From Dehalococcoidia bacterium (lineage in GTDB: Bacteria; Chloroflexota; Dehalococcoidia; Lucifugimonadales; UBA2985), in the NCBI GenBank assembly GCA_965219025.1, contig OZ244716.1, positions 1,351,812 to 1,415,811 of the forward strand: DNA of 64,000 nt, in the 5' to 3' direction. Every line of letters starts with the position of its first letter. Positions within the stretch are counted from its first letter, which is position 1. The position numbers and the translations under genes were made by a program. The notes beneath the pieces are model-generated. The model made no database searches and was not told where the DNA came from. It saw nothing but the letters and a program-made list of their open reading frames with translations. This document shows positions 6,807-49,292 of the stretch, in pieces.

Positions 6807-6825
6807 GCGCCTGCCGGGAGGAGCA

Positions 6826-7713
6826 ATGGCTGAAGCTGAAACATACACCTCCTATCGTACCGAGGAGTACGTCATCAAGGAGGAACCCTTTTACCTGCCC
6901 GTTGGCGACGAAGTTGAGCTGTTCGAGGTGGCATACTCGCAGCAGATGCCGGTCCTGCTGAAGGGGCCCACGGGCACCGGCAAGACCCGCTTCGTCGAGT
7001 ACATGTGCTATCGCTTGGGTCGGCCCGTAACCAGGATCACCAGGGGCAAGCGCTCCGGCAGCCGGTCGACAGGCGCCAGCGTCCCGCTCATGACGATAGC
7101 CTGCCACGAAGACCTCACGGCAAGCGACCTTGTGGGCCGCTACCTGCTGGAGGGAGACGAGACCCGGTGGATGGACGGGCCGTTGGCAAGGGCCGTCAAG
7201 GTGGGAGCCATCTGCTACCTGGATGAGGTGGTGGAGGCCAGAAAGGACACCACCGTGCTCATCCATCCGCTCACCGACCATCGACGCTTGTTGCCCATTG
7301 ACAAGCGTGGCGAGATAATCGAGGCCCACAAGGGCTTCCTGATGGTGCTCTCCTACAACCCCGGCTACCAGAGCGCGCTCAAGGACCTGAAGCACAGCAC
7401 GCGGCAGCGGTTCATGGCCATGGAGTTCAACGCGCCGCCGCCGGAGCTTGAGGCCGAGATCATCAAGCACGAGAGCGGGGCTTCTGCGTCGGTGTCCCTG
7501 GCCCTTGCCAAGCTGGGCGAGAAGGTGCGCAACCTGAGAGACCACGGCCTGCAGGAGGGTGTGGGCACAAGACTCCTGATCTACGCCGGCAAGCTGATTA
7601 ACAACGGGATTGCCCCGCGCAGAGCATGCCAGGTGGCCGTCACCTGGGCGCTGACCGACGACCAGCAGGTCCAGCGCAGCATAGACGAGGTCATTAACTC
7701 CATCTTCGAGTAG
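6826..7713 (+). CDS. CbbQ/NirQ/NorQ family MoxR-type AAA+ ATPase
   Basis: [48 protein letters not shown]; start ATG 6826 after GGAGGAG. Confidence 0.92.
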
Positions 7714-7794
7714 GCCGTCGCATTCGGCAGCCCCTGGGCCGGACCGGCAGACGATGCTTACCCTCAGCCCCGGAAGGCTCGGGCAGATTGCACC

Positions 7795-21488: not shown

Positions 21489-21755
21489 GATAGTGCATAG
21501 AGGAGGAGTGCTGGCGGAATTCAACGTGAAAGGGCCCCCACCCTTTGGTAGATATCCTTCGCGCCAGACTTGTCCTCTTCATTTTACACCCTGGTCATCG
21601 GAACTCGAAAGGGCACCTGCCTTTCGGCGGATGCCCCTCTTGCGCCACGCTGCCACCTAATTCAACACTGGCTCGAGACCTTCTAAGCGTCAAGGCCAAG
21701 GGCAGCTTACTTGCTTGGGAAAATGCCGAGTAGGTCCCAACGCAGGACGGACCCC

Positions 21756-21989
21756 TCACGCCACGTGCAGCTGCCTGACCACTCCGTCCACCACCGTCCC
21801 AACCACGTGCCCGCCCACAGCTCCGCGGAGTCGCTCGTCGTCCCAGTCGTCGCCCAGGTCATAGGTGTAGCTCTTGTAGTCCGACGCCGGTTCAGCCTCG
21901 AACGCGAATACCTGTACCTCCAGGGTCAGCTCCCTCCTGGCAGTGTCTACGCTCAGCAGCGTTCCGGAGATTCCGTCCCTGCTCGCCAT
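21756..21989 (-). CDS. small hypothetical protein
   Basis: MASRDGISG..., 77 aa, RBS AGGAGG upstream of ATG 21989. Confidence 0.55.
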   Translation of the reverse strand: MASRDGISGTLLSVDTARRELTLEVQVFAFEAEPASDYKSYTYDLGDDWDDERLRGAVGGHVVGTVVDGVVRQLHVA

Positions 21990-22082
21990 CCGGTCCCCCT
22001 CCTGTGATTGTCCTTCAACCGAGGATAACACCGCGGCGCCCATCCGGGCAATCCATGCGGCGGCGCGGAGGGCGCCAGCCCG

Positions 22083-22457
22083 TCATCCGAACCAGATGGC
22101 GAGGTACTTCGTGAACCAGAACAGGCCGGCGTACGTGGCAACGGCCGATGCCGCCAAGACGATCAGCATGCGGCGGTACCGGTACGCGCCGCGTACGTTG
22201 CAGACGCCGCGGCCGCGCAGGAACAGGACGACGGCCAGCGTCGCCACTGCCAGGCCCGCCGCCCGGAAGTACCAGCCGTAGTCGTAGTAGAGGGTGTCGC
22301 CGAGCGTCACCGCCTCGGCTGCGGTTGCGATGCCCAGCAATGCCAATACCACCGGCGATACGCAGCAGGTGATGGCGACCAGGCCCGAGCCCACGCCCAT
22401 GAGGACCCCACGCTTCAGGGACCTGTTGGCTGCCTCGGGCGCCGTGCGTTCAGACAT
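22083..22457 (-). CDS. MerT/MerF-like small metal transport membrane protein
   Basis: ITCCVSPVVLALLG vicinal Cys pair in TM1, three hydrophobic segments, further Cys in GVCNV. Confidence 0.65.
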   Translation of the reverse strand: MSERTAPEAANRSLKRGVLMGVGSGLVAITCCVSPVVLALLGIATAAEAVTLGDTLYYDYGWYFRAAGLAVATLAVVLFLRGRGVCNVRGAYRYRRMLIVLAASAVATYAGLFWFTKYLAIWFG

Positions 22458-22603
22458 CGTAGATTCTCTCGTTCGGAGGGCCACCTATGGGGCTTGCCCG
22501 GTTCAACAGGCTAGCCTCTTGCGGTGACACTCGTCAACAGGGGTTCGATGCCGTGAGGAGTCAGGACGGTCCGCCTTCACGCGCGCGTGTCGTCACACTC
22601 CCG

Positions 22604-22632
22604 TTGACCAAAGAGAACAGGCGTGCTATTCT
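22604..22632 (+). promoter_or_regulatory. sigma70 promoter overlapped by a LexA-like box
   Basis: TTGACC-N17-TATTCT; AGAAC-AGGC-GTGCT at 22614-22627 differs at one position from AGAAC-N4-GTTCT. Confidence 0.55.
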
Positions 22633-22658
22633 CCTCCCTGCACGTCTCCAAATCAGGG

Positions 22659-22979
22659 ATGACGGCGCAGGAGGAAGCCTTGCCGGACTCTCTGCAGATT
22701 CTGATACTCGCTCAGGGGTCGCTTACCGCCCTGTCCGGCGGGTTCAACGCCGTCTACTTCGCCCGCTACTCCGCGTCCGACCGTAGCAGGCGCATTGCCT
22801 CGCGAGTGCTTGCGCTGGTCAACGTGAGCTTCCTTCTGCAGGGCCTGTACTGGGCCGCGGACGCGGCCGGCGATCAGGGAGATGGCCCGCCGCCGTGGCC
22901 GGGACTCGTAACGCTGCTGGCGTCGCTGGCCATAACCGCCATGGTGCTCCGTCGAAGGTCCGGCGGCCGCCGCCGCTAG
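22659..22979 (+). CDS. small membrane protein, first gene of the packaging-like operon
   Basis: 106 aa with about 3 hydrophobic segments and an Arg-rich C-terminus. Confidence 0.6.
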   Translation: MTAQEEALPDSLQILILAQGSLTALSGGFNAVYFARYSASDRSRRIASRVLALVNVSFLLQGLYWAADAAGDQGDGPPPWPGLVTLLASLAITAMVLRRRSGGRRR

Positions 22980-23010
22980 CAGCATAGCATTCATGGAAGG
23001 GAGGGGGCCA

Positions 23011-23169
23011 GTGAGCGCCATGTCGAAGGCCATCGAGAAACGTGAGTGGGAGGTGGTGGCCGTGTGCCTGCTGAGGGGGCTTGTGCAGGCGGCCTCCGCG
23101 CTGCCTCCGGACGCCGTGCACCAGTTGGTGGAAGCGCTGGAAGGAGACGAGCGTGCCAAACCCCGCTAG
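23011..23169 (+). CDS. small hypothetical protein (52 aa), below the ORF-track cutoff
   Basis: Translated by hand: MSAMSKAIEKREWEVVAVCLLRGLVQAASALPPDAVHQLVEALEGDERAKPR; GGAGGG upstream; overlaps the next gene. Confidence 0.55.
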   Translation: MSAMSKAIEKREWEVVAVCLLRGLVQAASALPPDAVHQLVEALEGDERAKPR

Positions 23170-23485
23170 CGGAAGTTCGCCGGAGCCGGGCGCCTTCTAC
23201 GAGGATGCCATGTCCCGGGCGGAGCGCGTGCGCCTGTCGCGGGCGAGGCAGCTTCAGGGCCTGGACGAGGAGATCGCTCTGCTCAGGGTGCGCCTGGGCA
23301 GCCTTGCAGAGGAGCAGCCGGACAACGTGGAGCTTCTCATAAAGGGGATCGGGATGCTGGTCAGGGCGGTATCCGCCAAGTACCGGCTTTCGCCCAGGTC
23401 CGAGAAGGACCTGTACCAGAGCCTGCTAGGCGTGCTGGAAGGCGTGGGCAGCGTCCTTATGCCGGAGGCGTCGGATGGGCAGTGA
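23153..23485 (+). CDS. putative terminase small subunit-like helical protein
   Basis: GTG start after GGAG; GLDEEIALLRVRL helical motif; position upstream of the large terminase. Confidence 0.5.
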   Translation: MPNPASGSSPEPGAFYEDAMSRAERVRLSRARQLQGLDEEIALLRVRLGSLAEEQPDNVELLIKGIGMLVRAVSAKYRLSPRSEKDLYQSLLGVLEGVGSVLMPEASDGQ

Positions 23486-23690
23486 CGAGATGGAGAAGGC
23501 GCTGGGGAAGTTTCGCAAGCCGGGCGTGGACGTATCGCCGCTGTCGACGTTCGACGCGCTGCTGGACCAGCGAATGGGACACCTGGAGCGGAGCGTAGAG
23601 GAGCTGAAGACGCGAGTCAACGGCCTGGTGTTTCTCGTGGCGGGAGCGGTGATTGTGCAGGTGCTGCTGCGCCTGCTGGAGTGGAGCTGA
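23475..23690 (+). CDS. small coiled-coil protein with C-terminal TM (XhlA/holin-like architecture)
   Basis: LDQRMGHLERSVEELKTRVN heptads followed by GLVFLVAGAVIVQVLL. Confidence 0.55.
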   Translation: MGSDEMEKALGKFRKPGVDVSPLSTFDALLDQRMGHLERSVEELKTRVNGLVFLVAGAVIVQVLLRLLEWS

Positions 23691-23694
23691 GCGA

Positions 23695-25113
23695 ATGAGC
23701 GGGATGGTGAATCTGAGGCCGTACCAGGTGGAGATCGGCCGGGCCGTAATGGACAGCGTGCTCAACGAGCGCGGCTTGACGTTCACGGTGGAGATCGCGC
23801 GACAGGGAGGCAAGAACGAGCTGTCGGCGCAGATGGAGGTGCTCCTGCTGGCCATGTTCGCGGCGAAGGGCGGCAACCTGGTGAAGGCCGCACCCACGTT
23901 CGACCCGCAGGTCCGCATCAGCATGTCGCGGCTGAAGGAGCGGCTGGGTCAGGCCGGCCTGGGCGGCCTGTGGAGCGCGGAGGCGGGCGGCGCCGTCCGG
24001 CTCGGCAGGGTGAGGCAGCTGTTCCTGAGCGCCGAGCCGTCGAGCAACGTAGTCGGCGCCACGGCCCACGTTCTCATCGAGATGGACGAGGCGCAGGACG
24101 TGGAGAGGGACAAGTTCTACAAGGAGTTCCGGCCCATGGGCGCCTCCACCAACGTGACAACCGTCCTCTATGGCACGCCCTGGCGCGGCGACTCGCTGCT
24201 GGAGGAGGTGAAGCAGTCCAACCTGGAGCTGGAGCGGAGCGACGGGGTAAAGCGTCACTTCCGGCAGTCCTGGGAGGAGGTGGCCGCTCACAACCCGCTC
24301 TACCGCGATTACGTTGAGGGCGAGCGGCGGCGGCTGGGGGAGAGCCATCCCCTCTTCCGCACGCAGTACATGCTGGAGTCGCTGAGCGGCGGGGGAGGCT
24401 TATTCTCGGCGGAGCAGCTTGCGCAGATGGATGGCCGCCACGGCCGCCGCCGCTCGCCGGAGCCGGGGCGGGTCTACGTCGCCGGCGTGGACGTGGCCGG
24501 CGAGGCGCCCGATGGCGAGGGTGTGGATGAGGCGCTGCGCGCCGCACGGCCCACCCGCGACTCCACAGTGGTCACCATCGGCGAGCTGGACTTCAGCGGC
24601 TGCGACGAACTATCGCCGGACCCGGCCGTGCGCATCGTGGAGCACCACTGGTGGACGGGGCAGAGCCACGCGGATCTCTACCCCAGGCTCGTTGACGTGC
24701 TGCGCGAGGTGTGGCGCTGCAGGCGCGTGGTGATAGACGCCTCCGGACTGGGACAGGGCATTGCCAGCTTCCTGGAGCGAACGATGGGCAGGGGCGTGGC
24801 TGTGCCCTTCGTGTTCACGGCGCAGAGCAAGTCGCGGCTGGCGTTCGACCTGCTGGCCGCGGTGAGCTCGGGCCGGCTGAAGATGTACGCGGCGGACGGG
24901 TCGCCGGAGTACGCCGAGATGCGCGCCCAGACCGAGCGTGCCGTCGGTCGGGTGAGGCCAAACCGGACGATGAACTTCTACGTGGAGTCCCGCGAGGGGC
25001 ATGACGACTTCCTGATGAGCCTTGCGCTGCTGGTCGGCGCCGCCGAATACAGGCCGCGTCACGCTCGGGGAAGAGCAGCGGTGAGAGCGGGCGCCGTCCC
25101 GCCGAGGGGGTGA
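23695..25113 (+). CDS. phage terminase large subunit-like protein
   Basis: LRPYQ (Q motif), ARQGGKNE Walker A-like, IEMDEAQD Walker B, VAGVDVAG and HDDFLMSLAL RNase H-like nuclease acidic residues. Confidence 0.85.
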   Translation: MSGMVNLRPYQVEIGRAVMDSVLNERGLTFTVEIARQGGKNELSAQMEVLLLAMFAAKGGNLVKAAPTFDPQVRISMSRLKERLGQAGLGGLWSAEAGGAVRLGRVRQLFLSAEPSSNVVGATAHVLIEMDEAQDVERDKFYKEFRPMGASTNVTTVLYGTPWRGDSLLEEVKQSNLELERSDGVKRHFRQSWEEVAAHNPLYRDYVEGERRRLGESHPLFRTQYMLESLSGGGGLFSAEQLAQMDGRHGRRRSPEPGRVYVAGVDVAGEAPDGEGVDEALRAARPTRDSTVVTIGELDFSGCDELSPDPAVRIVEHHWWTGQSHADLYPRLVDVLREVWRCRRVVIDASGLGQGIASFLERTMGRGVAVPFVFTAQSKSRLAFDLLAAVSSGRLKMYAADGSPEYAEMRAQTERAVGRVRPNRTMNFYVESREGHDDFLMSLALLVGAAEYRPRHARGRAAVRAGAVPPRG

Positions 25114-25117
25114 GTGC

Positions 25118-25420
25118 GTGAGTCCAAGAAGGAACGAACCCGTCATTGACGTGCTGCCGGAGCAGCACCAGTACCGGGACGAAGGCTGCAGCGTGTCGCC
25201 GTCGTGCCTGCGCTGCCCGCTGCCGTGGTGCAAGTACGACGACCCGGCCGCCTACCACCGGGAGCTGCGGCTGAGTCGTGACCGCGAGGTGATGCAGGTG
25301 AAGCGCGATCAGGGCAAGACCGTACCGCAGCTGGCGCGCCACTTCGGCCTCAGCGAGCGGACGATACATCGGATCCTGGAGCGCGCCAGGGTCGTAACGC
25401 TCGAAGGCGATGGGCTGTGA
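25118..25420 (+). CDS. Cys4-motif / helix-turn-helix DNA-binding protein
   Basis: CSVSPSCLRCPLPWC, then KTVPQLARHFGLSERTIHRIL HTH. Confidence 0.7.
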   Translation: MSPRRNEPVIDVLPEQHQYRDEGCSVSPSCLRCPLPWCKYDDPAAYHRELRLSRDREVMQVKRDQGKTVPQLARHFGLSERTIHRILERARVVTLEGDGL

Positions 25421-25452
25421 GGTGGACGTCTTGAGCAGTTCAGGAGAACGAC

Positions 25453-26757
25453 ATGAGTAACCTTTCGCTTCCGCAGCAGCTGGCCCGGATGGACGGCGAT
25501 AGGCTGAGGGCCTACCGCGAGAATCTGGAGTTCTACGCAGGCGCGCAGTGGAAGGGTACGCCGCACCGGTGGGAGCGACGGCTCACCTTCAACTACGCTC
25601 GCACGTTCCTGGACAAGGTGACCTCCTACCTGATGACGGAAATGTCCTTCGTCATCGGCCCCACGGACTCGTCGGCGGAGGCGGTGGAGCGGGCGAGCCG
25701 CGCGGATGAGGCGCTGCGCGGCGTGTACGATGACAACCGGCTGGAGCAGCTCGACTTCGATACGGAGCTGGACACCGCCATTCTGGGCGACGGCTGCTAC
25801 AAGGTGACGTGGGACTCACAGGAGCGGCGAGTGAGGATCAGCGCGCCGGACGTGCAGGGCCTGTTCGCCTGGTGGGTCGCGGACGACGTGGGTCGCGTGT
25901 GGCAGGTCGCAAGCCGCTACCACCTGACGCCGGAGCAGGCGCAGACGCTCTACGGAGTGAAGCCTGCACAGATGAACCGCCGGGCCGGCCGAGCGACCGT
26001 GGTGGAGGCGTGGACCCCGCGTGAGCTCCGGCTGTGGGTGGACGATACGCTGGTGCAGGAGCGGGCCAATCCCTACGGATTCATACCGTTCGTCATATTC
26101 CCCAACCTGCGCGAGCCAAAGCGGTTCTGGGGCCAGTCGGACATCCCGCCAATCGTGGAGCCGTCACGGGAGCTGAACAGGGCCGTATCGCAGCTGTCGA
26201 TGATACTGGAGCTGTCGGGCAACCCCATCGCGGTTGTGGAGGGCGTGGAGCGTGCGGAGGACATCGCCGTACAGCCTGGCGCGGTGTGGGAGCTGCCGGA
26301 GCGCGCTCGTGCGTACCTGCTGGACCTGCTGCAGGGCGGGGGCGCCAAGCTCCACGTGGACTTCATCGACGTGATACACCGCGCGCTGCACGACCTGTCG
26401 GAGGCGCCTCGCATCAGCTTTGGCGACAACCCGCGGAACCTGTCCGGCGTGGCGCTGGAGATGGAGATGGGCCCGCTGCTCCAGCGCGTGCGGCGGAAGA
26501 GGCTCATCCGAGCGACGGCCTACCGGGAGCGGAACGAGATGGCGCTGCGGATACTGGAGAAGCGCACGGGCGTGAAGTACCTGCCGGTGAGGCAGCGAGT
26601 GGTGTGGGGCCCGCTGCTTCCGCAGGACCGGAGCCGGCTGGTGAGGGAGCAGCAGACGCTGGTGGAGGCTGGGATCCAGAGCAGGCGCCGCGCCATGGAG
26701 AACCTTGGCATCGATGACCCGGATGCGGAGCTGGAGCGTCTGAAGGCTGAGGGGTGA
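25453..26757 (+). CDS. phage portal protein (SPP1 Gp6-like)
   Basis: RLTFNYARTF, ILGDGCYKV, NPYGFIPFVIFPN, GQSDI...RELNRAVS, NLSGVALE; RBS AGGAG. Confidence 0.85.
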   Translation: MSNLSLPQQLARMDGDRLRAYRENLEFYAGAQWKGTPHRWERRLTFNYARTFLDKVTSYLMTEMSFVIGPTDSSAEAVERASRADEALRGVYDDNRLEQLDFDTELDTAILGDGCYKVTWDSQERRVRISAPDVQGLFAWWVADDVGRVWQVASRYHLTPEQAQTLYGVKPAQMNRRAGRATVVEAWTPRELRLWVDDTLVQERANPYGFIPFVIFPNLREPKRFWGQSDIPPIVEPSRELNRAVSQLSMILELSGNPIAVVEGVERAEDIAVQPGAVWELPERARAYLLDLLQGGGAKLHVDFIDVIHRALHDLSEAPRISFGDNPRNLSGVALEMEMGPLLQRVRRKRLIRATAYRERNEMALRILEKRTGVKYLPVRQRVVWGPLLPQDRSRLVREQQTLVEAGIQSRRRAMENLGIDDPDAELERLKAEG

Positions 26758-32888: not shown

Positions 32889-32965
32889 GGGCGGTTAGCT
32901 CAGCTGGTTAGAGCGCTTGCTTCACACGCAAGAGGTCAGTGGTTCAAGTCCACTACCGCCCACCA
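32889..32965 (+). tRNA. trnV: tRNA-Val (anticodon CAC)
   Basis: GGGCGGT/ACCGCCC acceptor stem, CTTGC-TTCACAC-GCAAG anticodon arm, TTCAAGT T-loop, encoded CCA; 77 nt. Confidence 0.96.
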
Positions 32966-33051: not shown

Positions 33052-35013
33052 TTGGAGCTCCAATTGCGAAAGGACATCGGTGGAGTCGGGGGAATCGTGT
33101 CGTTATGCTTAGTGGGTGCCGCTATGCTGTTGGCATGCGACGACGGCCTGCAGATCTCGTCTACTCCCAGCGCTACTTCGATGCCCGTGCCAACACTCGC
33201 TCTGGTTGTCACTTCTACGTCCACACCGGAGCCTTCTCAAACTGAGCCAAGGCCTGTCTACACGCCGACGACTAGTCCGAATTCCACAGCCACGCTTGAG
33301 CCTCGTTTCACGCCTATCAGCAGTGGCCATCTGCACACCTGTGCACTCACTCAGAGTGGAGCCGCCATTTGTTGGGGGAACGATGAGTATGGCCAGTCAT
33401 CACCACCGGATGGCGAGCAGTTCATCTCCATAAGCAGCGGCAGCCGACACACTTGCGCCCTTACTAAAGACAAGACCGCTCTTTGTTGGGGCGACAATGA
33501 ATACGGTCAGTCATCACCGCCAGAGGGCGAGCAGTTCATCTCCATAAGCAGCGGTGGTGATCTGTTCGGCTATTCATTGTTCGACGGACACACCTGTGCG
33601 CTCCGCCGCGACGGCTCCGCCGTTTGCTGGGGAGACAACAGCTCGGGGCAGTCATCGCCACCGGAAGGCGAGCGCTTCACGTCCATCAGCACCGGAGAAG
33701 GGCACACCTGCGCCCTCCGGGAAGATGGGACAGCCGTATGTTGGGGTCATTCAACGGAACCGCCGAAGGAAGAGCAGTTCACCACTATAAGCGCTGGCGA
33801 GGAATACACGTGTGCTCTGCGCGGCGACGGTTCTCCAGTCTGCTGGGGATATGGTCATCATGGGGCGGCAAATCCGCCACAAGAGGAGCGCTTTACTGCT
33901 CTCAGCAGCAGTGAAGGATACGCTTGCGGTTTGAGAAGTGACGGCTCGGTTGCCTGCTGGGGGCTGGTCCCTCCTATAGATGCCTCTCCTCTATGGAATG
34001 ATTTCGGTCAGGCTGCACCGCCGGAGAGTGAACGCTTCACGGCCATTAGCAGCGGGCCGCTCCATACCTGTGCACTTCGAGAGGACGGTACGCCCTTCTG
34101 CTGGGGTGTGGATACGATACCAAAGGGTGGCGAGCGCTTCATACCAGTTGCCGGGCATTGGACATCGGCTGAGATGGATGGAATGCCGGTGGGGAATGAG
34201 CGCTTCACTACAATCAGCAGTGGCAGCCGCCAGACCTGCGCGCTCCGAGAGGATGGCTCCGATCGCTGCTGGGGACCATGGGGCGTGTCCAGCAGATTCC
34301 GGCTCTTGGATGAAAACAGGGACTTCCTGGAGGACGCACGGTTTGCCGCCATCAGCTCTGGGAAGTACTTCGCCTGCGGGCTTCGCGAGAACGGCTCAAT
34401 AGCCTGCTGGAATTCAGGTTTCTGGCAACCCTTCTCACCCCCGGAGGACCACCGCTTTGAAGCGGTCGGTGTTGGGGGTGACACCTGCGCCATTAGGGAT
34501 GACGGCGCTCTCATCTGCTGGGGTTGGTCTTTTGACGATGCAGTTGTGCTGGACGGTGGCCCCATCATCGCGATAAGCCCGGGCTACGACCATGTCTGCG
34601 GGCTACGTGAAGACGGCTCTCCTCATTGCTGGAACTACGTCGAATTCACCCAAGTGTCTGTCCCGGATGGAGAACAATTCACCGCAGTTAGCAGCGGTCG
34701 GGGGTTCGCCTGCGGACTGCGCCAAGATGGGACTCCCGTTTGCTGGGGCCGGGCCACCGACAGTTGGCTATCGCCACCGGAGGGTGAACGTTTCATTGCT
34801 ATAAGTAGTGGTCGTAGTCATAGCTGCGCACTCCGACAGGATGGCTCTCCTGCTTGCTGGGGCGAGAATGGCGCAAACCAGTCATCGCCACCGGAGGGTG
34901 AACGTTTCATCGCCATTAGTAGTGGTGATGACCATAGCTGCGCCCTCCGAGAGGATGGCTCTCCCGTCTGCTGGGGTTGGAGTGACTTCGGCCAAGCCTC
35001 ACCTCCGCGATAA
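33052..35013 (+). CDS. RCC1/BLIP-II repeat beta-propeller lipoprotein
   Basis: Lipobox MLLAC, Pro/Thr linker, about 14 repeats of the type FxxISSGxxHTCALxxDGxxxCWG (about 39 aa); true start may be downstream (33064 or 33097). Confidence 0.85.
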   Translation: MELQLRKDIGGVGGIVSLCLVGAAMLLACDDGLQISSTPSATSMPVPTLALVVTSTSTPEPSQTEPRPVYTPTTSPNSTATLEPRFTPISSGHLHTCALTQSGAAICWGNDEYGQSSPPDGEQFISISSGSRHTCALTKDKTALCWGDNEYGQSSPPEGEQFISISSGGDLFGYSLFDGHTCALRRDGSAVCWGDNSSGQSSPPEGERFTSISTGEGHTCALREDGTAVCWGHSTEPPKEEQFTTISAGEEYTCALRGDGSPVCWGYGHHGAANPPQEERFTALSSSEGYACGLRSDGSVACWGLVPPIDASPLWNDFGQAAPPESERFTAISSGPLHTCALREDGTPFCWGVDTIPKGGERFIPVAGHWTSAEMDGMPVGNERFTTISSGSRQTCALREDGSDRCWGPWGVSSRFRLLDENRDFLEDARFAAISSGKYFACGLRENGSIACWNSGFWQPFSPPEDHRFEAVGVGGDTCAIRDDGALICWGWSFDDAVVLDGGPIIAISPGYDHVCGLREDGSPHCWNYVEFTQVSVPDGEQFTAVSSGRGFACGLRQDGTPVCWGRATDSWLSPPEGERFIAISSGRSHSCALRQDGSPACWGENGANQSSPPEGERFIAISSGDDHSCALREDGSPVCWGWSDFGQASPPR

Positions 35014-35088
35014 GGCGCTTCTACTGAGCCATGAGTGCCTTCTATCGTTACAGCATTGCCAGCTACCGAATTATTCGCAGTTCAGTGC

Positions 35089-35219
35089 GCCTTGACCCAC
35101 CATGCGCTAAACTTGTCCGAGCCAGCGAAGAGTCCTTCGAAGTTTTCGCATCGCAAACACCGTTAACTCTTCTCCGACGGTTCGTCGCAGGGCTTGTCAA
35201 GTTAGCTTAATCGTTAAGC
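35089..35219 (+). other. degenerate integron attC site
   Basis: 3' end GTTAGCTTAATC-GTTAAGC (core GTTRRRY at 35213-35219); imperfect arms GCTAAACTTG/CAAGTTAGC, AGCC/GGCT, GAAGAGT/ACTCTTC; 5' inverse core eroded (GCCTTGAC). Confidence 0.55.
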
Positions 35220-35922
35220 CGAAATTGAATCGAGCACAAGAGTGAAGAAGTACATTCTCTTTGACCATGATGGGGTTCTGGTCGAAACGGAACAGTGGTA
35301 TTACCTGGCAAACAAACGAGCGCTGGCATCTCTCGGAATTGATCTCCCGCGAGACGCATATTTGGTGAATATGGCCAATGGAGTTTCCGCGTGGGAGGCT
35401 GCACGAGTTTCAGGAATATCCGAATCTGAAATCAAACGTGGCCGAGAACTAAGAAACCGATACTACCAGGAATACCTGATGACCGAAGACATCGAAATCG
35501 AGGGTGTCCTGCAAACACTGGCCGAACTCGCTGGTACGTACAGGATGGGTATCGTTACCACATCCAAACGACCTGACTTCGCCCTGATACACGAAAAGCG
35601 ATCCATTCTGGACTATATGGAATTCTATCTGACTGAGGAAGATTACGAGCGAGCCAAACCACATCCCGAACCCTACCTGAGAGGGCTCCAACGCTTTGGC
35701 GCTACTGCCGCTGAAACGGTAGTTGTTGAAGACTCGGCCAGGGGGTTGAAGTCAGCAATAGCGGCCGGTATTGACTGCATCGTGGTTGCAAACGAGTTCA
35801 CTGCATCTCACGATTTGTCCAAAGCAACTGCCAAGGTCGATACGTTTAGGGAATTGCCATCTACTATTAGGGGCTTAACAAGTTTAGCCAGGCGACGCTG
35901 AAAAGCGCGCCTGCCAAAAGCG
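35214..35922 (+). mobile_element. integron-type gene cassette carrying the HAD phosphatase
   Basis: Core GTTAAGCC at the 5' end is the exact reverse complement of the inverse core GGCTTAAC at the 3' end; single promoterless AT-rich ORF. Confidence 0.72.
35242..35901 (+). CDS. HAD-superfamily phosphatase (Cof/BPGM-like, family IA)
   Basis: LFDHDGVLVET, VTTS, AKPHPEPY, VVEDSARG. Confidence 0.9.
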   Translation: MKKYILFDHDGVLVETEQWYYLANKRALASLGIDLPRDAYLVNMANGVSAWEAARVSGISESEIKRGRELRNRYYQEYLMTEDIEIEGVLQTLAELAGTYRMGIVTTSKRPDFALIHEKRSILDYMEFYLTEEDYERAKPHPEPYLRGLQRFGATAAETVVVEDSARGLKSAIAAGIDCIVVANEFTASHDLSKATAKVDTFRELPSTIRGLTSLARRR

Positions 35923-35928
35923 TTAGGT
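35873..35928 (+). other. integron attC site (56 bp)
   Basis: R'' GCTTAAC ... R' GTTAGGT; arms TTTAGCCAGGCG-A-CGC / GCG-CGCCTGCCAAA with unpaired C and A as in canonical attC. Confidence 0.78.
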
Positions 35929-36111
35929 GTTAGGAGACGATAGTCATAGAATGGTTGAGCCTCCAACCCTGGCGGATCGGAAGCTCGTGAGGCGCCTTCC
36001 GGAGTCGCTTGACCGCCTCCTCAGATACGAACCTCCCACCGAATAGCTCGCAAATCAGTACGCCTTTTAGCTCCACCACCTTCAGCTGGACTAGTTCAGA
36101 GATTGCTCGAT

Positions 36112-36804
36112 TCAGCCTGACTTGCGTGCGAAGAGGACGCAGTGGTCCATCGGCTTGGGATCCTTGAAGTAGATGACGCCTCCCAGCTTGCCGCCCTCCG
36201 GCGCCACCACGCTCAGGCCACGGTCTGCCAGGATGCCGACGACTTGGTCAACGCCGTAAAGCTGGAATGTCCTGTCCGCGTCGTAGTCCTTGTCGTACAC
36301 CGTTGCAACGCCGACACCGATCTTGAACATGAGTTGCAGAACGCCACCATTCCCAAGCACCCTGATGAACTCCGGCAGAGTGACGCCCAGGGTCGTCTCC
36401 GGGTCGATGTGCTGGATGACGGCGTTGCACGTCAGAAAGTCGAAGCGGGCGTCGGGGAACGCCAGGGGCTTTCGGAGATCGGCAACGGACACCCTCGCCG
36501 CTATCTCCGGGTGGAGCCTGCGAGCCTCCGCGACGTTTTCCTCGACTGCGTCCACGCCGTAGATGTCGTAGCCCTTCTGCCAGTAGAAGTACACGTCCCG
36601 TGCGCCTGCGCCACAGCCGGCGTCCAGCCCCCTGGAACCGGCGGGGACGAGGTCCTGCAGCCGTTCCGCGAGGTCCATGTCGCTCTTGAGGGCCGGATGA
36701 GAGACGTCGGTATACACCGACTGGATGAAGTTGTGGCTGACCTCGGCGTAGCGCCGTGCGTGGTGTCTGTAGAACGACTCTGAGTAATCGGGTTTCTGAT
36801 TCAT
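36112..36804 (-). CDS. class I SAM-dependent methyltransferase
   Basis: GLDAGCGAGARD, YGVDA, FDFLTCNAVIQH. Confidence 0.88.
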   Translation of the reverse strand: MNQKPDYSESFYRHHARRYAEVSHNFIQSVYTDVSHPALKSDMDLAERLQDLVPAGSRGLDAGCGAGARDVYFYWQKGYDIYGVDAVEENVAEARRLHPEIAARVSVADLRKPLAFPDARFDFLTCNAVIQHIDPETTLGVTLPEFIRVLGNGGVLQLMFKIGVGVATVYDKDYDADRTFQLYGVDQVVGILADRGLSVVAPEGGKLGGVIYFKDPKPMDHCVLFARKSG

Positions 36805-36898
36805 CGGCGCAACCTCAATGGATGGGCTGTACTTTACCGCCAGGCAGGTCTATGAGCGGCTCGATATTGGTCTGCCTGTGCAATCCGGTCGCCGGCCC

Positions 36899-38293
36899 CT
36901 AGAACCCCAGCTCCAGGCGAGGCTTCATAAGGCGCTCCGGCACTGCGGTCTCCTGCATGAACTTGACCAGGTACTGGTGCAGGTCTCCCGCTATGTCCTT
37001 GTGGCCCCCTATGACGTTCTCCTGCTGGCCGGGGTCCGAGCTGAGATTATACAGCTCCGACCAGCCCTTCCGGGGGCTGTAGAGCAGGCTCCAGTCCTGG
37101 ACGGTAATGGTCGTGACGGGAGAGTCGACCAGCGGGCGCAGCAGGTTGTCGACGGAGTGCACTGGGTCGCCGGGGTTTGCGAAGGGTATGCTGCTGACCA
37201 CGTACTCCCTCCCGGGCACGGAACCGTCCCTCATTCCGGGAGCGAGAGACCTTCCCTGGACAGAATTGGGGACCTCCATCTCAAGCAGGTCAAGGACGGT
37301 GGGCATGACGTCCACGGCCGAGCTCAGGCCGCTGTACGCTCCCGGTGGAACGCCGGGTGCGTGAATGAGAAGCGGGATGTGTACGAGCTCCTCGAACAGT
37401 GGAGAGTGGGCCCACATTGACCCCGGGTCTCCATAGGGCCGCAGGGTGCCGTCCGGGTACTTGTCGCCATTCATCTTGCCAAAGAGGCCGCCATGCTCTC
37501 CAAAGTAGAAGCCGTGGTCCGTGGTGAAGATGACCGCCGTCTTGTCCGTCAGGCCCATGTTCTCAACGGACCTGAGCAGGTGGCCCAGCCACGTATCGAC
37601 CATGGTGATCTCGCCGCAGTAGGTGGCGTGCCCCTTGTGCATGGTCTCCTCGCTGTAGCCGCGCACGTCGTGCCAGTTGCCGTAGAGGGGCAGCACCATC
37701 TCGCCGTCGTATCCGGGCCAGTAGAGTTCCGTGTAGTAGGGAGGCGCATCCCAGGGCTCGTGGGGGTCCCAAGTGTCGACGAGGAGGAAGAAGTCGTCCT
37801 TGTAGTGCTGCTCCAGCCACCGGATGGCCGTCGTGAAGGTGCGCGGGGCATTGCGGTCCGACTCGTGTCTCCACGCCGCCCGTACGTCCAGGGCCTCGTT
37901 GTGGTAACCGGGCTGCGGGAGTAGTGACCACAAGGTGTCCTGCCCACGGTTCATGAAGAACGACTGAAAGCCCCGGTCGTAGTTCATCCCGTCTCGCAGG
38001 TAGTACGGGGTGTCAACCGACGCGGCAGTGTGAAATCCACGCTCGACCAGCATCTCTGCCAGGGTGGTCACGCCCTCCGGGAGGGGCTGCCAGCCCATGA
38101 AGGACATGGTCCAGCGGCCCGTCTGGTGGTCGGCCCTTGTGGGCATGGTAGGAAAACCGGCGGAGTAGTGCCTGTCGAATCGGACGGATCTGCCTGCAAG
38201 CGCGTCGAGGGACGGCGTCCGAATCGTGGGGTTCCCGTAGGCGCCGATGTGGTCTCTGCGGAATGTATCGGATACCACCCAGATTACGTTCAA
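36899..38293 (-). CDS. sulfatase-fold (alkaline phosphatase superfamily) hydrolase with Thr at the FGly position
   Basis: VSDTFRRDH, PTMPTRADHQTG, DPHEPWD, FTTDHG, HIPLLI. Confidence 0.85.
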   Translation of the reverse strand: MNVIWVVSDTFRRDHIGAYGNPTIRTPSLDALAGRSVRFDRHYSAGFPTMPTRADHQTGRWTMSFMGWQPLPEGVTTLAEMLVERGFHTAASVDTPYYLRDGMNYDRGFQSFFMNRGQDTLWSLLPQPGYHNEALDVRAAWRHESDRNAPRTFTTAIRWLEQHYKDDFFLLVDTWDPHEPWDAPPYYTELYWPGYDGEMVLPLYGNWHDVRGYSEETMHKGHATYCGEITMVDTWLGHLLRSVENMGLTDKTAVIFTTDHGFYFGEHGGLFGKMNGDKYPDGTLRPYGDPGSMWAHSPLFEELVHIPLLIHAPGVPPGAYSGLSSAVDVMPTVLDLLEMEVPNSVQGRSLAPGMRDGSVPGREYVVSSIPFANPGDPVHSVDNLLRPLVDSPVTTITVQDWSLLYSPRKGWSELYNLSSDPGQQENVIGGHKDIAGDLHQYLVKFMQETAVPERLMKPRLELGF

Positions 38294-38465
38294 GGTACGG
38301 CCTCCTAACTGGGATAAGAGGTAAATCTATCACAAAAGCCGGGGACTCCGAAAGTGCAGGCGTGGTTTTCCCCCATTCTTTTGATTCGCAGTGTACGTTG
38401 TGTGCGGACGCGCATACGAATACAATCGATCTGCATCACCCGTTATTGGCACACGGGAGGCCCTG

Positions 38466-38963
38466 ATGACTGCTACGGATGATGTCCTCAAGAATAACGC
38501 CCAATACGCCGAGAGCTTTGACCAGGCGGACTTGCCACTGCCGCCGGCGCTCAACATGGCGGTTGTGGCGTGCATGGACGCGCGCCTGGACACCCACAAG
38601 CTGCTGGGGATCCAGGAAGATGACGCGCACGTCATTCGCAATGCCGGCGGTGTGGTCACCGACGACGTGATCCGCTCCCTGGTGATCTCTCAGCGCCTGC
38701 TGGGCACAAGGGAGGTGGTGCTGATACACCACACCGATTGCGGGATGCTGACCTTTCGAGACGACGAAGTGAAGGACGCAATCCAGGCCGACACCGGCCT
38801 CCGGCCATCCTTTGCAATGGAGGCATTCGGTAGTCTGGAGGGGGACGTGCGGCAGTCCATCGGACGAATCAAAGCCAGCCCGTTTGTCCCGGCCAAGGAC
38901 CAGATTCGCGGCTTCGTGTACGATTGCGCCACCGGGCGTCTCAATGAGGTCTCGCCAGCCTGA
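38466..38963 (+). CDS. beta-class carbonic anhydrase
   Basis: VACMDARLD, IRNAGG, HHTDCGM; start ATG 38466 after GGAGG. Confidence 0.92.
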   Translation: MTATDDVLKNNAQYAESFDQADLPLPPALNMAVVACMDARLDTHKLLGIQEDDAHVIRNAGGVVTDDVIRSLVISQRLLGTREVVLIHHTDCGMLTFRDDEVKDAIQADTGLRPSFAMEAFGSLEGDVRQSIGRIKASPFVPAKDQIRGFVYDCATGRLNEVSPA

Positions 38964-39185
38964 CGGTACACGCGCCTTAGTTGGTTACACGTTGGGCCGG
39001 TTCCGAAAGACGATCCTGCTTGCCGGCAGTCGAGTCCTTCAGCGGTAGCCACCCCCGCCGTCGGAATCCACCTCTGCAAGTCGTCGGCGTAAGGCCTCCT
39101 CCAGCGCGGCAATTCTATGCCCGGCCTGATGTGTAGCGTTGTTCCCGAAGTCGCAATGCCGGCAGGGCGGACGGCAGGAAGTCTC

Positions 39186-39249
39186 GGGCGGTTAGAGCGC
39201 TTGCTTCACACGCAAGAGGTCAGTGGTCCAGGGCCACTACCGCCCACCA
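39186..39249 (+). pseudogene. defective copy of tRNA-Val(CAC)
   Basis: Identical to 32889-32965 except for a 13-nt D-arm deletion (CTCAGCTGGTTAG) and 3 changes in the T-loop (TTCAAGT to TCCAGGG). Confidence 0.9.
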
Positions 39250-42727: not shown

Positions 42728-44077
42728 ATGGATGAGAGTATTACCGGCCTGAGTAGGCCGAGGCGGTCGGCACGGTTGACCTCAATCGTTATAATCCTAT
42801 GCTTGACGGCAGCCGCCTTGGTGTCGGCGTGCGGTGAGGCGCAAGAGCCTGTTGCCATGTCTGGCGGCGAGATTCGCTCGGCCAAGGAGCGAGCCGAGCC
42901 ATCAGCCGCCAGTGCGGACCTGGCTGCCCTCGGCAATGGCAACAGAGCTTTCGCCTTCGACCTGTACCGGACTCTGAGGTCCCAGGATGGGAACCTGTTC
43001 TACTCGCCCCACAGCATCTCTCAAGCCCTCGCCATGACCTACGCAGGGGCCAGGGGTCAGACGGCAAGCCAGATGGCGGACACGCTCCGCTTCTCCCTAA
43101 CCCAAGACCGGCTTCACCCCGCGTTCAATGCCTTGGACCTGGATCTCGCCTCTCGGGGCAAGGACAGTCAAGGCAAGGACGGCGAAGGGTTCAGATTGAA
43201 CATCGTCAACGCGGTCTGGGGCCAGGAAGACTACGAGTTTCTGGAGCCGTTTCTCGACGTTCTGGCGGAGAGCTACGGGGCAGGCGTGAGGCCCGCCGAC
43301 TTCATTGACGCTCCCGAGGAGTCCAGGGTCGCAATCAACGACTGGGTCGCAGAGAGCACGGAGGACAGGATCAAGGACCTGATTCCGCCGGACGTCATCA
43401 ACTCGCTGACCAGGATGGTGCTGACCAACGCCATCTACTTCAACGCGGTCTGGAGCTATCCCTTCGATGAAGCGAACACCCGCGAGCGACCTTTCCACCC
43501 GCTGGACGGCGGCAGCGTGGACGTTCCGATGATGAGGACATCGGAGGGTTTTGGCTATGCGTCGGGAGACGGGTACCAGGCCGTGGACCTGCCCTACGAT
43601 GGACACGAGCTGTCCATGACCGTCCTGCTGCCGGACAGCGGGCGGTTCGGAGAGTTCGAGGACTCCCTGGACGCCGCCTTGGTAGACCGGGTTATCGCAG
43701 ACCTCGAGGGCGCCTACGTTACCCTTGAACTGCCGAAGTTCAAGTTCGAGTCCCAGTTCCGGCTGGCCGAAACCCTCAAGGCGATGGGGATGTCCAACGC
43801 ATTCGACAGATCTACCTCCGACTTCTCGGGCATGGACGGCAAGTCGTGCATCGCGGGAGACGCTGAGTGCCTGTACATCAGGGATGTTATCCACAAGGCC
43901 TTCGTGTCGGTGGACGAAAAGGGCACCGAGGCGGCCGCGGCCACCGCTGTAGTGATGCAGCTGGAATCTGCTCCCATGAATCCGGTCAGCGTTACGGTGG
44001 ACAGGCCTTTCATCTTTCTGATCCGGGACCTGGAGACGGGGGCCGTCCTGTTCGTGGGGCGCGTGACAGAGATATAG
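42728..44077 (+). CDS. serpin (serine protease inhibitor) lipoprotein
   Basis: NLFYSPHSISQALAM, LTNAIYFNAVW, DEKGTEAAAATAV hinge, DRPFIFLIRD; lipobox LVSAC. Confidence 0.93.
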   Translation: MDESITGLSRPRRSARLTSIVIILCLTAAALVSACGEAQEPVAMSGGEIRSAKERAEPSAASADLAALGNGNRAFAFDLYRTLRSQDGNLFYSPHSISQALAMTYAGARGQTASQMADTLRFSLTQDRLHPAFNALDLDLASRGKDSQGKDGEGFRLNIVNAVWGQEDYEFLEPFLDVLAESYGAGVRPADFIDAPEESRVAINDWVAESTEDRIKDLIPPDVINSLTRMVLTNAIYFNAVWSYPFDEANTRERPFHPLDGGSVDVPMMRTSEGFGYASGDGYQAVDLPYDGHELSMTVLLPDSGRFGEFEDSLDAALVDRVIADLEGAYVTLELPKFKFESQFRLAETLKAMGMSNAFDRSTSDFSGMDGKSCIAGDAECLYIRDVIHKAFVSVDEKGTEAAAATAVVMQLESAPMNPVSVTVDRPFIFLIRDLETGAVLFVGRVTEI

Positions 44078-47080: not shown

Positions 47081-47154
47081 GGGCCATTAGCTCAGGTGGT
47101 TAGAGCGCGGTCCTGATAAGACCGAGGTCCCTGGTTCGAATCCAGGATGGCCCA
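47081..47154 (+). tRNA. trnI: tRNA-Ile (anticodon GAT)
   Basis: GGGCCAT/ATGGCCC acceptor stem, CGGTC-CTGATAA-GACCG anticodon arm, TTCGAAT T-loop; CCA not encoded. Confidence 0.95.
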
Positions 47155-47228
47155 CATACCCGGATCCAGGCTTGAGAGAGATGCGAAGGAATCGCCGCTA
47201 AGGCTACCAATCCATAATCCTCACGTAG

Positions 47229-47956
47229 GTGGGCAGAGATGTAGGTAAGCTCTGCTGCCGGTTGGTCACTCATCCTTGCCGTGGTCATTGGCCTTGTTGG
47301 GTCGATGCTCACACAGGGCGGTTTCCTGATCGATCCTGTAGACTCCGCCAGCTTCGGAGAGGCTGCACGCGTCCTGGGCGACAACGGTCAGTTGGCTCAA
47401 TTCTCGACATTCCTGTTCGTAGTCAGCGTCCTGCTCTACTGGTTCGGGCTGCACAGCTTGAACCGGGCGTTCAGCGTCGGGTCCGTCATGGGCAACGTGT
47501 CCCGGTTTGCCCTGAACGTGTTTCTGGTTGGCTACGACTTTCTCGTCATTGAGCTGAGCGTCCGGCACATTCCTGACCCACGTGCTGGAGCATGGCGTCG
47601 GAGGCACGGCTGCGGAAGAACAGGCTATGGCAACCACTCTCTTTGCCGCGGCCTCGGGTGTTCACATTGCATTCCTCTACGTCACGGCCATCGGCTCGAC
47701 GATATTTGGGTTCGGCCTGGTGCGCCGGTGTGAGGGCATGAGCAACTTCAAGCTGGCGTCCATAGGGCTGACCCTCACAGGTGTGCTCAGCTTCATAGTG
47801 CTGATGGTCGCAGAACACGTGCCGGAGATAGACCTGCATGGAGTTGCCGTCGTGAGCAATATCGTGCTGTTCTTCGGCTCCTTCTGCATCCTGGCCATCG
47901 GCGTGGGAATCATGCAAGGTCGACAGGAATTCGTGGGAGAAGAAGCTGCGGCTTAG
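47229..47956 (+). pseudogene. multi-TM membrane protein with two single-base frameshifts
   Basis: Removing one base near 47253 and one near 47567 joins MGRDVGKL-AAGWSLILAVVIG...VRHI-LTHVLEHG...EEAAA into one hydrophobic ORF. Confidence 0.7.
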
Positions 47957-48127
47957 CCATCACTCCTGGCGACAAGACCAACGGAAGGTGTCCACGCCCG
48001 AGGCCCTGGACTTTCGGCACGGCGCGAGGGCGGTTCGCAATGCGGATTGCCGCTGCATACGGCCCGCAGTTGGAATTCCGTTTAGCTGGACGGATAGCAA
48101 GCCGGCAAGAGCGAGGCCCCTGGCGCG

Positions 48128-48583
48128 TTGGAAAGCACGTGGACGGCGGCCATTCACAAGGGCCGGTACGAGGTCTTCAACATCGACCTCACCGAGATTG
48201 CCAACGCCATTGCGCAACGCGACCCTAGTCTGGTCGTCCAGCTATTCCGACGCATCACCCCCGACCGGACGGCAACGCCCTTGTCGCAATTACCCTACAC
48301 CTGCGCCACGCCGTGCGAGGGTGGGACGCTGACGCTGTACCGCCAGTACTCGACGCCCAAGCTCATCAAGCATGACACCTTCCATGTCTACGGCGACCAC
48401 CTGTTTACCAACGAGGGGCAGACGTGGGAGCCTCAAACGCACACTGAGGGCCAGACGACCTTCGAGGGCAACCCGCTCAACTGGCTAGGCACCTTCAAGC
48501 GCGAGCTCATCAATGACCTCGGCGAGGAAGTGTGGGATGATATTATGGACCTCGTGGACACGCTAAGGGGGAGCAATGACTAA
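48128..48583 (+). CDS. hypothetical protein (possibly 5'-truncated)
   Basis: 151 aa, plausible composition, stop overlaps the next start; no recognisable motif. Confidence 0.45.
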   Translation: MESTWTAAIHKGRYEVFNIDLTEIANAIAQRDPSLVVQLFRRITPDRTATPLSQLPYTCATPCEGGTLTLYRQYSTPKLIKHDTFHVYGDHLFTNEGQTWEPQTHTEGQTTFEGNPLNWLGTFKRELINDLGEEVWDDIMDLVDTLRGSND

Positions 48584-49292
48584 GCGCCAAGCACTCGCCA
48601 TCACCACGACGCTGGGCGTCATCATCCTGGCCGTGACCCTGCGGGCGCTCTTCACGGCGGACACGGCGGACGTGAACGCACAGGTGGTCACCGACGCCTG
48701 CACCAAGACGACCCAGGCCACGCACATTGACCTCAGCATCTCCCACGTCGGCAAGTACCTCGCCGGAGAGGGCACTGACTCGGCAGGGGAAGTCAAGGCG
48801 CGCATTGCCGGGGCGGACTTCCACTACAGCGGGCACGTCACTGGGGATCCCCATCTCCCCTACAATACCTTCGAGGCAGTCTACCTCGATGGCGTAGGCT
48901 ACTCGCAGGTTGACAATGGCCCCTGGGCAGTCACGCGCGAGGTGGACCAGGAGGTCCTCGCCCGGCTACTGCAACTCCAGCCCGCGGCCGACGGCAGTTG
49001 GGACTTGTGTCCGCAGGTCACCAACATCGAGAAGGTGGGACCGGAGACGCTCGACGGCGTGGCGACGACGCACTACACGTCCTTGTCGGAGCAGACCACC
49101 AAGATGGGGAAGACGGACGTGGTCTTCAACCTCGCCCTGGACTACTGGCTCGACGAGGAGGGGCTGCTCGTGCAACTCCAATTCGACGTGATACACCGCC
49201 AAGGCGAGTACGAGACCCTCAACCGCACCACCACCAAGGTCTCCGGCGTCGGCGAGGTCAACACCATCACGGCGCCGACGTTGGGGCAGTAG
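48576..49292 (+). CDS. membrane-anchored LppX/LprAFG-like protein
   Basis: N-terminal TM; beta-rich pattern EAVYLDGVGY...GPETLDGVATTHY...DYWLDEEG. Confidence 0.6.
   Translation: MTKRQALAITTTLGVIILAVTLRALFTADTADVNAQVVTDACTKTTQATHIDLSISHVGKYLAGEGTDSAGEVKARIAGADFHYSGHVTGDPHLPYNTFEAVYLDGVGYSQVDNGPWAVTREVDQEVLARLLQLQPAADGSWDLCPQVTNIEKVGPETLDGVATTHYTSLSEQTTKMGKTDVVFNLALDYWLDEEGLLVQLQFDVIHRQGEYETLNRTTTKVSGVGEVNTITAPTLGQ

Follow-up and report, generated by a model that had tools for sequence, protein, structure and literature searches.

Background

The attC site of an integron gene cassette acts as single-stranded DNA; its bottom strand folds into a hairpin, which the integron integrase (IntI) recognises by the paired R and L boxes and by the extrahelical bases. 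Strand exchange by IntI takes place between the G and the TT of the core GTTRRRY. Isolated cassettes with no integrase beside them are common, and published counts run to thousands both of single attC sites lacking an integron-integrase (SALINs) and of clusters of such sites (CALINs). Here we describe a cassette of this kind in 64,000 nucleotides of DNA, referred to below as the window, from a Dehalococcoidia bacterium of the phylum Chloroflexota (contig OZ244716.1, forward strand, 1,351,812–1,415,811). Positions 35214–35922 of the window, which carry a gene of the HAD-IA phosphatase family followed by an attC site, are probably a genuine cassette of the SALIN type that has become the cargo of a tRNA-linked unit with no integrase of its own.

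CALINs have been described, as have integrons in Chloroflexi (Cury et al. 2016, PMC4889954). SALINs have been reported, and so has insertion by IntI at places other than att sites (Loot et al., bioRxiv 10.1101/2022.09.11.507474). The routes published for the origin of either class are loss of the integrase, rearrangement mediated by insertion sequences (ISs), and attC x attG insertion (PMC4889954; bioRxiv 10.1101/2022.09.11.507474). Elements which target tRNA genes accumulate in islands and leave partial tRNAs, as the tycheposons of Prochlorococcus do (bioRxiv 10.1101/2020.12.28.424599).

The features of the cassette, in window positions, are:

35104–35220, + strand: attC1, truncated; L'', a variable stem, L' and R' (GTTAAGC, 35213–35219) are kept and R'' is gone; crossover predicted at G35213|T35214
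35214–35922, + strand: HAD cassette, 709 bp, bounded by the two predicted crossover points
35242–35901, + strand: open reading frame (ORF) for a HAD-IA family phosphatase, 219 amino acids, GTG start (Pfam HAD_2, E = 6e-30)
35872–35929, + strand: attC2; R'' GCTTAAC at 35873–35879, R' GTTAGGT at 35922–35928; crossover predicted at G35922|T35923
35923–35947, + strand: conserved tail of 25 nt, retained together with the cassette by over 20 loci and followed by at least seven different continuations

Like the described SALINs and CALINs, the locus has a complete attC site directly 3' of a promoterless ORF of the same orientation, with intI not nearby. An earlier interpretation made from the letters alone (the sequence-only reading) had named both classes, and this grouping was right. 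A CALIN requires two or more attC sites within 4 kb of each other on the same strand; since attC2 is the only complete one in the window, the locus counts as a SALIN with a remnant and not as a CALIN. Unlike members of either class, the piece lies within a tRNA-linked unit found in about 180 species, and its junctions show none of the published routes of origin.

The attC site and the cassette

The 8-mer GTTAAGCC at 35213–35220 returns as its exact reverse complement, GGCTTAAC, at 35872–35879. There it opens an imperfect palindrome of 56 bp with GTTAGGT (35922–35928) at its end, and the stop codon of the HAD ORF (TGA, 35899–35901) lies in the hairpin loop. All of these features, which the sequence-only reading had pointed out, are present. 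By itself the inverted 8-mer is not significant, as several inverted repeats of 10–11 nt arise by chance in the same 1.2 kb. The boxes GCTTAAC and GTTAGGT, over 56 bp, agree with the cores RYYYAAC and GTTRRRY at the 55–140 bp that separate them in attC sites, and the extrahelical C is at 35888. Folding of the bottom strand, proposed earlier as a check for 35873–35928, gave -15.7 kcal/mol over 35868–35932 (z = -3.5), a value equalled by none of 200 shuffles; the top strand gave -12.6 kcal/mol (z = -1.5). In a consensus copy of attC2 the strands are similar in fold energy (-14.1 and -15.2 kcal/mol).

Rfam holds no attC family, and its scan of the window gave tRNAs only. A covariance model, R1, was built from 16 attC sites of six annotated class 1 integron arrays (15 pairs from the R and L boxes, 62 positions), the aadA1 attC having been located in plasmid R100 as confirmation before training. 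Since MAFFT alignment of full-length sites placed the L' box wrongly, long sites were cut to their first and last 31 nt. R1 matched 35872–35929 on the + strand over all 62 positions with 23.5 bits, at E-values (rough ones) of 0.0027 in 146 kb and 0.00023 in a 12-kb search with the filters off; the opposite strand scored 6.2 bits. This is the only match in the 64 kb with E < 1, the limit at which IntegronFinder retains attC covariance matches, and the next best in the window reached 11 bits. Orthologous attC2 sites in 24 related loci (loci are given L numbers below) scored 14–30.9 bits, and no other match of 18 bits or more was found in 1.04 Mb of related Chloroflexota loci. Fourteen of the 15 modelled pairs are standard in the window site, with canonical spacer lengths and extrahelical base, and all 15 are standard in the orthologous site of L018. 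Real attC sites held out of the training gave 29.7 (blaOXA-1), 29.3 (blaIMP-1) and 13 bits (dfrA14), and that of dfrA16 was missed; the candidate therefore lies within the range of true sites.

We also applied a geometry rule that takes no account of sequence apart from the cores (AAC, 4–6 nt, 3 bp, a single bulged base, a stem of 5 bp or more ... 4–7 nt, GTT). Of real attC sites it picks up 20, with spacers of 5 and 6 nt in 18 of them and of 5 and 5 in two, and it also recovers the consensus form of attC2. Random sequence yields 0.4 hits per 64 kb, and the chance ones differ in spacer length; the canonical 5/6 geometry was confined to real attC sites, to attC1 of 16 loci and to the Opitutales sites described below.

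In comparison with the attC sites of class 1 integrons (attC-aadA1, 60 bp), attC2 belongs to the same length class (58–60 bp) and has its parts in the same order, namely R'' (YTAAC), spacer, L'' with extrahelical base, short loop, L', a 6-nt spacer ending in AGC, and GTTAG. Side by side the two read AACAAGTTTAGC(C)AGGCG...AAAAGCGTTAGG and AACAATTCGTT(C)AAGCC...TCAAGCGTTAGA. Unlike them, attC2 scores below the training sites of R1, its host belongs to the Chloroflexota with no IntI1 context, and its R''/R' pairing, as found in the array, extends over only 4–5 bp because R' is a hybrid with the sequence that follows. A second GTTAGG directly follows GTTAGGT at 35929–35934. It had been read as a second core, and the letters are indeed there, but they are a variant particular to the window, for the relatives conserve CTTAGA. 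The palindrome at 35872–35929 has genuine attC anatomy, and the attC-bounded architecture that had been proposed is supported.

The first seven bases of the cassette, TTAAGCC, are complementary to R'' of its own attC (GGCTTAA), or 8/8 when the G and C are counted, as is expected of a true cassette. The full 8/8 complementarity is kept in 20 of 55 loci, and in L023 a double change has preserved it. Between GTTAAGCC and the GTG start there are 21 nt, and no promoter-like or terminator-like site was called in 34900–36200. After the hairpin the sequence is CCAAAAGCG, with no T-run such as an intrinsic terminator has. The locus thus offers what defines a cassette, a promoterless ORF (rarely two) with an attC site and a start complementary to its own R''. 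The protein passes the NCBIfam cut-off of TIGR01509 without reaching the equivalog level, and a look-up of the exact window protein gave no match. Its gene has a G+C content at third codon positions (GC3) of 0.51 as against about 0.85 in host genes (the genome is 63% G+C), and is in composition foreign to the host genome.

The element upstream of the HAD gene had been described as a longer, eroded palindrome. Eroded it is; it is in fact what remains of an attC-like element of 131 nt, attC1, of which the window keeps the 3' three-quarters and of which relatives have complete copies. In the window its R'' has been replaced by ...GACCCACCA, and this copy gave no R1 match. In 16 loci attC1 is complete, with a spacer of 5 nt after AAC, then 3 bp, an extrahelical base and a stem of 8 bp, and at its far end 6 nt before GTT. 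When the bottom strand of the 131-nt element is folded, its R box is followed by an unpaired spacer, an L box of 3 bp, a bulged G and finally a long stem. Where relatives possess the whole unit, the geometry rule detects attC1 as well as attC2, about 660 bp apart and on the same strand.

Homologues in cassette arrays

Cassette association of HAD homologues, on which the sequence-only reading had made its proposal depend, is seen in three independent contexts. In L100, a metagenome contig, a HAD gene 78% identical to that of the window is followed by four attC sites of 21.6–34.1 bits on one strand, which separate the HAD gene, a small ORF, a second HAD gene and a pair of adjacent small ORFs; all of these ORFs were read without a family scan, and the pair is taken to be a putative toxin-antitoxin system. 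In L098, a metagenome contig of 215 kb, an attC site (25.4 bits), purC, the HAD gene and attC2 follow in this order. Homology of the window with L098 covers 35217–35927, within 5 nt of the predicted cassette. In L025, an Opitutales contig of 5.7 Mb, a 92%-identical HAD gene stands among unrelated ORFs of the same strand (PhyH, peptidase M14, cupin, UDG, BNR and an ORF without Pfam match that was read as a membrane protein), with an attC-like site after each. An IS91-family element (6639–9172) is inserted exactly after the CTTAAC of the HAD attC in this locus. L025 and L100 resemble the sedentary chromosomal arrays in their many small unrelated ORFs of one strand with an attC site after each; the window, unlike these, lacks an array, and around the unit in the Chloroflexota loci no additional attC matches were obtained.

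Two candidates were rejected in this comparison. Insertions at CTTAAC in L025, L047 and L052 were considered as cassette junctions in reverse orientation; they are the IS91-family element and two other ISs, the latter judged by eye from ORF translations. The psp cassette of sul3-type class 1 integrons (L085, 5743–6351), although annotated as a HAD hydrolase, is unrelated to the window gene beyond the superfamily.

Search for an integrase

Among 54 window ORFs scanned against Pfam there was no recombinase or integrase, as had been claimed, and tblastn with IntI1 gave no match in the window, so that within the 64 kb intI does not stand beside attC as in a complete integron. With the same query no integron integrase was found within 6–10 kb of the gene in 83 related loci, the only two matches being a recombinase beside the IS91-family element of L025 and a weak one in L012. 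The former was considered as a possible IntI, since its best match is the integron-integrase model, and is not counted as one; it scores 184 bits against a cut-off of 265, in two pieces, and is an Xer/IntI-like tyrosine recombinase without the insertion specific to IntI. Nor was an integrase found between the tRNA copies of the window, L004, L015 and L055, which are described in the following section.

The tRNA-linked unit

A tRNA-Val gene and a pseudo-tRNA-Val bracket a region of 6.2 kb which contains the cassette. The features of this island, apart from the cassette itself, are:

32889–32965, + strand: tRNA-Val(CAC), anchor of the island (ARAGORN; Rfam, 71.5 bits)
33052–35013, + strand: gene of an RCC1-repeat protein, cargo of the first tRNA-linked unit and outside the cassette (Pfam RCC1_2, E = 8e-92; GC3 0.61)
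35065–35103, + strand: terminal repeat copy 1, about 40 nt, ending in CCCACCA (direct repeat D1, 79% identical to 36038–36066)
35948–36078, + strand: segment at the right end of the unit, closed by repeat copy 2 (36038–36078, ...GCTCCACCA); common to nine other loci, which then diverge
35930–36079, - strand: ORF of 49 codons, no family match
39186–39246, + strand: pseudo-tRNA-Val, distal bracket (Rfam tRNA, 34.6 bits; not called by ARAGORN)

The pseudo-tRNA-Val is a near-identical copy of 32889–32962 without the D arm and with a changed T loop. In order, the island consists of the tRNA-Val, the RCC1 unit, the HAD unit (35104–36078), a segment with methyltransferase, sulfatase and carbonic anhydrase genes, and the pseudo-tRNA-Val. 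It adjoins a tRNA and is flanked by a repeat of the 3' part of that tRNA, as tRNA islands are, and no integrase was found in it. Repeat copy 1 resembles the right end of tRNA-linked units in the nine loci compared, and homology with the relatives breaks just after it. The window junctions, at 35103/35104 and about 36078, thus lie beside repeats ending in CCACCA and not at G|TT. The sequence CCACCATG within such repeats was considered as the start of minus-strand genes (peptides of the MVGQG... type) and rejected as such; it forms the 3' end of a genuine tRNA in L009 and L057, and for this reason the repeats are treated as att-like remnants.

In about 40 of the 83 loci the shared block consists of purC, attC1, the HAD gene, attC2 and the 25-nt tail (about 2 kb). 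The purC linked to the HAD gene is a full-length SAICAR synthase (NCBIfam equivalog, 424 bits; for example L004, 4774–5763), and where it travels with the HAD gene its nucleotide identity between species is 90–98%. The left end of the unit, TCGTATAGGC, directly adjoins tRNA 3' ends with the junction ...GCCCACC|TCGTATAGG. Among the relatives at least six different tRNA genes, of the types Lys, Ile, Met, Ala and Val, have the unit at their 3' end. L098 and L006 have a fuller leader of the cassette, starting G|TTAGGCT, a near match to R'' of attC1. On the right the unit ends with the tail or with an extra 130 nt that close with ...GCCTTAGCCCACCA and beyond which the sequences of nine loci diverge; in nine loci the right ends finish in GCCCACCA. 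In many loci the tail is followed by what appears, from its translated end, to be the end of an IS5-family element. The "type B" 3' ends of L002, L003 and similar loci were considered as an ancestral C-terminus of the HAD protein and rejected, since they are about 35 nt of an apparent IS5-family terminal repeat fused to the ORF.

Full duplicates of tRNAs bracket units in L015 (496–8152, three tRNA-Lys), L004 (249–4737, two tRNA-Lys) and L055 (4661–9127, two tRNA-Ile). The cargo between the copies amounts to 3–4 kb and includes an ankyrin-repeat protein of 833 amino acids, an SMC-like ATPase and purC-HAD. Such units resemble tycheposons in their insertion next to tRNA genes, in the full or partial tRNA repeats on both sides, in tandem accretion and in remnants consisting of cargo only. 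Unlike tycheposons they are about 1–4 kb in size, with no integrase or replication module in any unit examined, and we do not claim membership.

Two observations on individual loci may be added. In L022 a perfect inverted repeat of 13 bp, GCTAATCAATTAC/GTAATTGATTAGC (about 4725–4743 and 6691–6703), encloses the purC-HAD unit, and after it the motif TTAGCATCGTTAAGCC, normally found 5' of the HAD gene, reappears. In the window itself a tRNA-Ile followed by several small ORFs of lower GC3 without Pfam match (47081–49292) may be another tRNA-linked island.

Distribution and abundance

Homologues of the HAD gene were found in 181 related stretches of a species-representative genome collection. Eighty of these were kept, and their identities range from 82 to 95% at the amino acid level. 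Almost all of the genomes are metagenome-assembled genomes of Dehalococcoidia or other Chloroflexota, and some isolate names resemble those of bins from sponge metagenomes. The flanks of the loci are mutually unrelated, while a block of about 0.85–2 kb is 85–98% identical in DNA.

In contigs of four metagenome runs (X1–X3 and X5; window 35010–36114) the word depth was 145–1550 over the HAD region and 15–30 over the RCC1 gene, that is, 10–50 times the flank. This excess indicates that the cassette is present in many co-occurring genomes. The unique metagenome contig ends at 35174.

Origin and movement of the cassette

A course of events may be suggested that would account for these arrangements. 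The cassette, a promoterless HAD-IA phosphatase gene with an attC of 58 bp and no integron integrase found nearby, would originally have been made by IntI. It belongs to a two-cassette piece, purC-attC1-HAD-attC2, which still lies in true arrays in L098 and, as the HAD cassette alone, in L100 and L025. In Chloroflexota of the sponge type this piece has probably become the cargo of a unit of about 2 kb, without integrase, located at tRNA 3' ends. The units stack in tandem, and the HAD unit of the window is cut off inside attC1. From the anatomy of the junctions we might suggest that a tRNA-targeting recombinase acting in trans moved the unit; the cassette is presumably now immobile in the window, where it appears to have arrived inside the tRNA-linked island. 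Because the window copy is truncated at the left and its attC is slightly decayed, we have filed it as a stranded cassette of the SALIN type and not as a local capture by IntI.

Several observations weigh against this interpretation. With regard to the attC sites, R1 is a home-made model and not the attc_4 of IntegronFinder; long sites were trimmed for it and its calibration was short. Compared with the consensus of its family, attC2 of the window is mismatched (A.C) at one place in the L box and has lost 2 nt of the stem, and it does not pass the strict geometry rule. R1 matched attC1 in L018 only (17.3 bits), and with default filters only. Covariation within the attC2 family was sought as well and had to be given up, the copies being too alike; apparent changes on both sides of the stem came from two non-orthologous rows, which were discarded. 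With regard to the boundaries, the cassette of L025 starts with TTATCCA, in keeping with the TTATCC of its array, whereas its own R'' would call for TTAAGCC. The conserved 25 nt past R' move together with the cassette. Most Chloroflexota junctions are not at G|TT, and the left junctions of copies with the HAD gene only are scattered. A metagenome contig that joins 35085 to 39232, and as such speaks for tRNA-linked spread, is the only one of its kind and of low depth. Finally, it is the junction anatomy that points to tRNA-linked movement, and no candidate recombinase was found for it.

On the sequence-only reading, an IntI, resident or transient, took up the cassette where it now stands. In this scheme a circular HAD cassette would have been inserted by IntI acting in trans into attC1 or an attG site, the integrase being elsewhere in the genome or having been transient. 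Such events, and the SALINs that result, are documented (bioRxiv 10.1101/2022.09.11.507474). The 8/8 match of the first bases of the cassette to its own R'', the R' of attC1 immediately 5' of it, and the restriction of L098 homology to the cassette would all agree with local capture. We nevertheless consider it unlikely. The attC1-HAD-attC2 block with its tail is common to dozens of genomes at about 90% identity and must therefore have been inherited as a block and not assembled here. In the Chloroflexota the block usually extends from 35099 to 35947 or about 36078 and not from 35214 to 35922. The window junctions lie among repeats resembling tRNA 3' ends, attC1 has been cut at its R'' end and lacks that box, and IntI was found neither in the window nor near the gene in the 83 loci.

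Another interpretation is that the hairpin resembles attC by coincidence only, being either a generic repeat or the 3' stem-loop of the HAD transcript with a role in stability or termination. The hairpin does follow the ORF directly, with the stop codon in its loop, the score of 23.5 bits is a moderate one, and divergent copies of the HAD gene (80–88% identity; L050, L061, L075) keep a GC-rich hairpin and lose the GTTAGG core. This seems to us quite improbable all the same. There is neither a T-run nor a terminator-like call; the R1 match is of full length with canonical spacers and extrahelical base, is specific to one strand, and is unique in the 64 kb and a further 1 Mb; a second element of the same geometry lies upstream; and homologues of the gene lie in arrays of much higher-scoring attC sites.

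That attC1 and attC2 are native to the tRNA-linked element, as sites of the recombinase that mobilises it and not as substrates of IntI, is very improbable, for although the unit moves with no visible integrase and breakpoints cluster near the start of attC1 (window, L037) and 25 nt past attC2, the actual ends of the unit are GCCCACC(A) junctions and not hairpins, and the same hairpins bound genes in the tRNA-free arrays of L098, L100 and L025.

A single cassette without integrase adds a member to the known SALINs and not a new kind, and its value lies in the scale of its distribution and in its vehicle. One cassette pair is found nearly unchanged in about 180 species, in unrelated surrounding DNA and at the ends of many tRNA genes. 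It is linked by sequence to real arrays in another phylum, and in the same metagenomes it is 10–50 times as abundant as the host genome. This makes it a convenient marker for the way in which cassettes leave integrons and continue to move in communities of uncultured symbionts, and raises the question of which recombinase serves tRNA-linked units that lack an integrase.

As a tentative and rather doubtful extension, this integron fragment of two cassettes might have been carried by tiny tRNA-targeting units (about 1–4 kb, without integrase, in tandem) into more than 100 sponge-associated species of Chloroflexota, its copies being about 90% identical in nucleotides, and might still be exchanged with true arrays in other phyla (Opitutales). 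If this is true, cassettes could spread by carriage on such units, independently of a local IntI and of IS elements, and an undescribed family of trans-mobilised elements with eukaryote-like proteins (RCC1, ankyrin) as cargo would be indicated.

Other features of the window

Two further ORFs of low GC3 without Pfam family lie at 100–1260 (0.53) and 2069–2761 (0.61). A phage-derived cluster occupies 20016–26757. It includes a fusion of DNA methylase and HNH nuclease (20016–21488), an ORF of the size of a terminase without Pfam match (23653–25113) and a portal protein of the SPP1 type (25453–26757).

RCC1, ankyrin and serpin proteins of eukaryotic type are typical of sponge symbionts. Two of these are encoded in the window: the RCC1-repeat protein of 653 amino acids with 10 repeats, the low-GC3 gene of which (33052–35013) directly follows the tRNA-Val, and a serpin (42728–44077).

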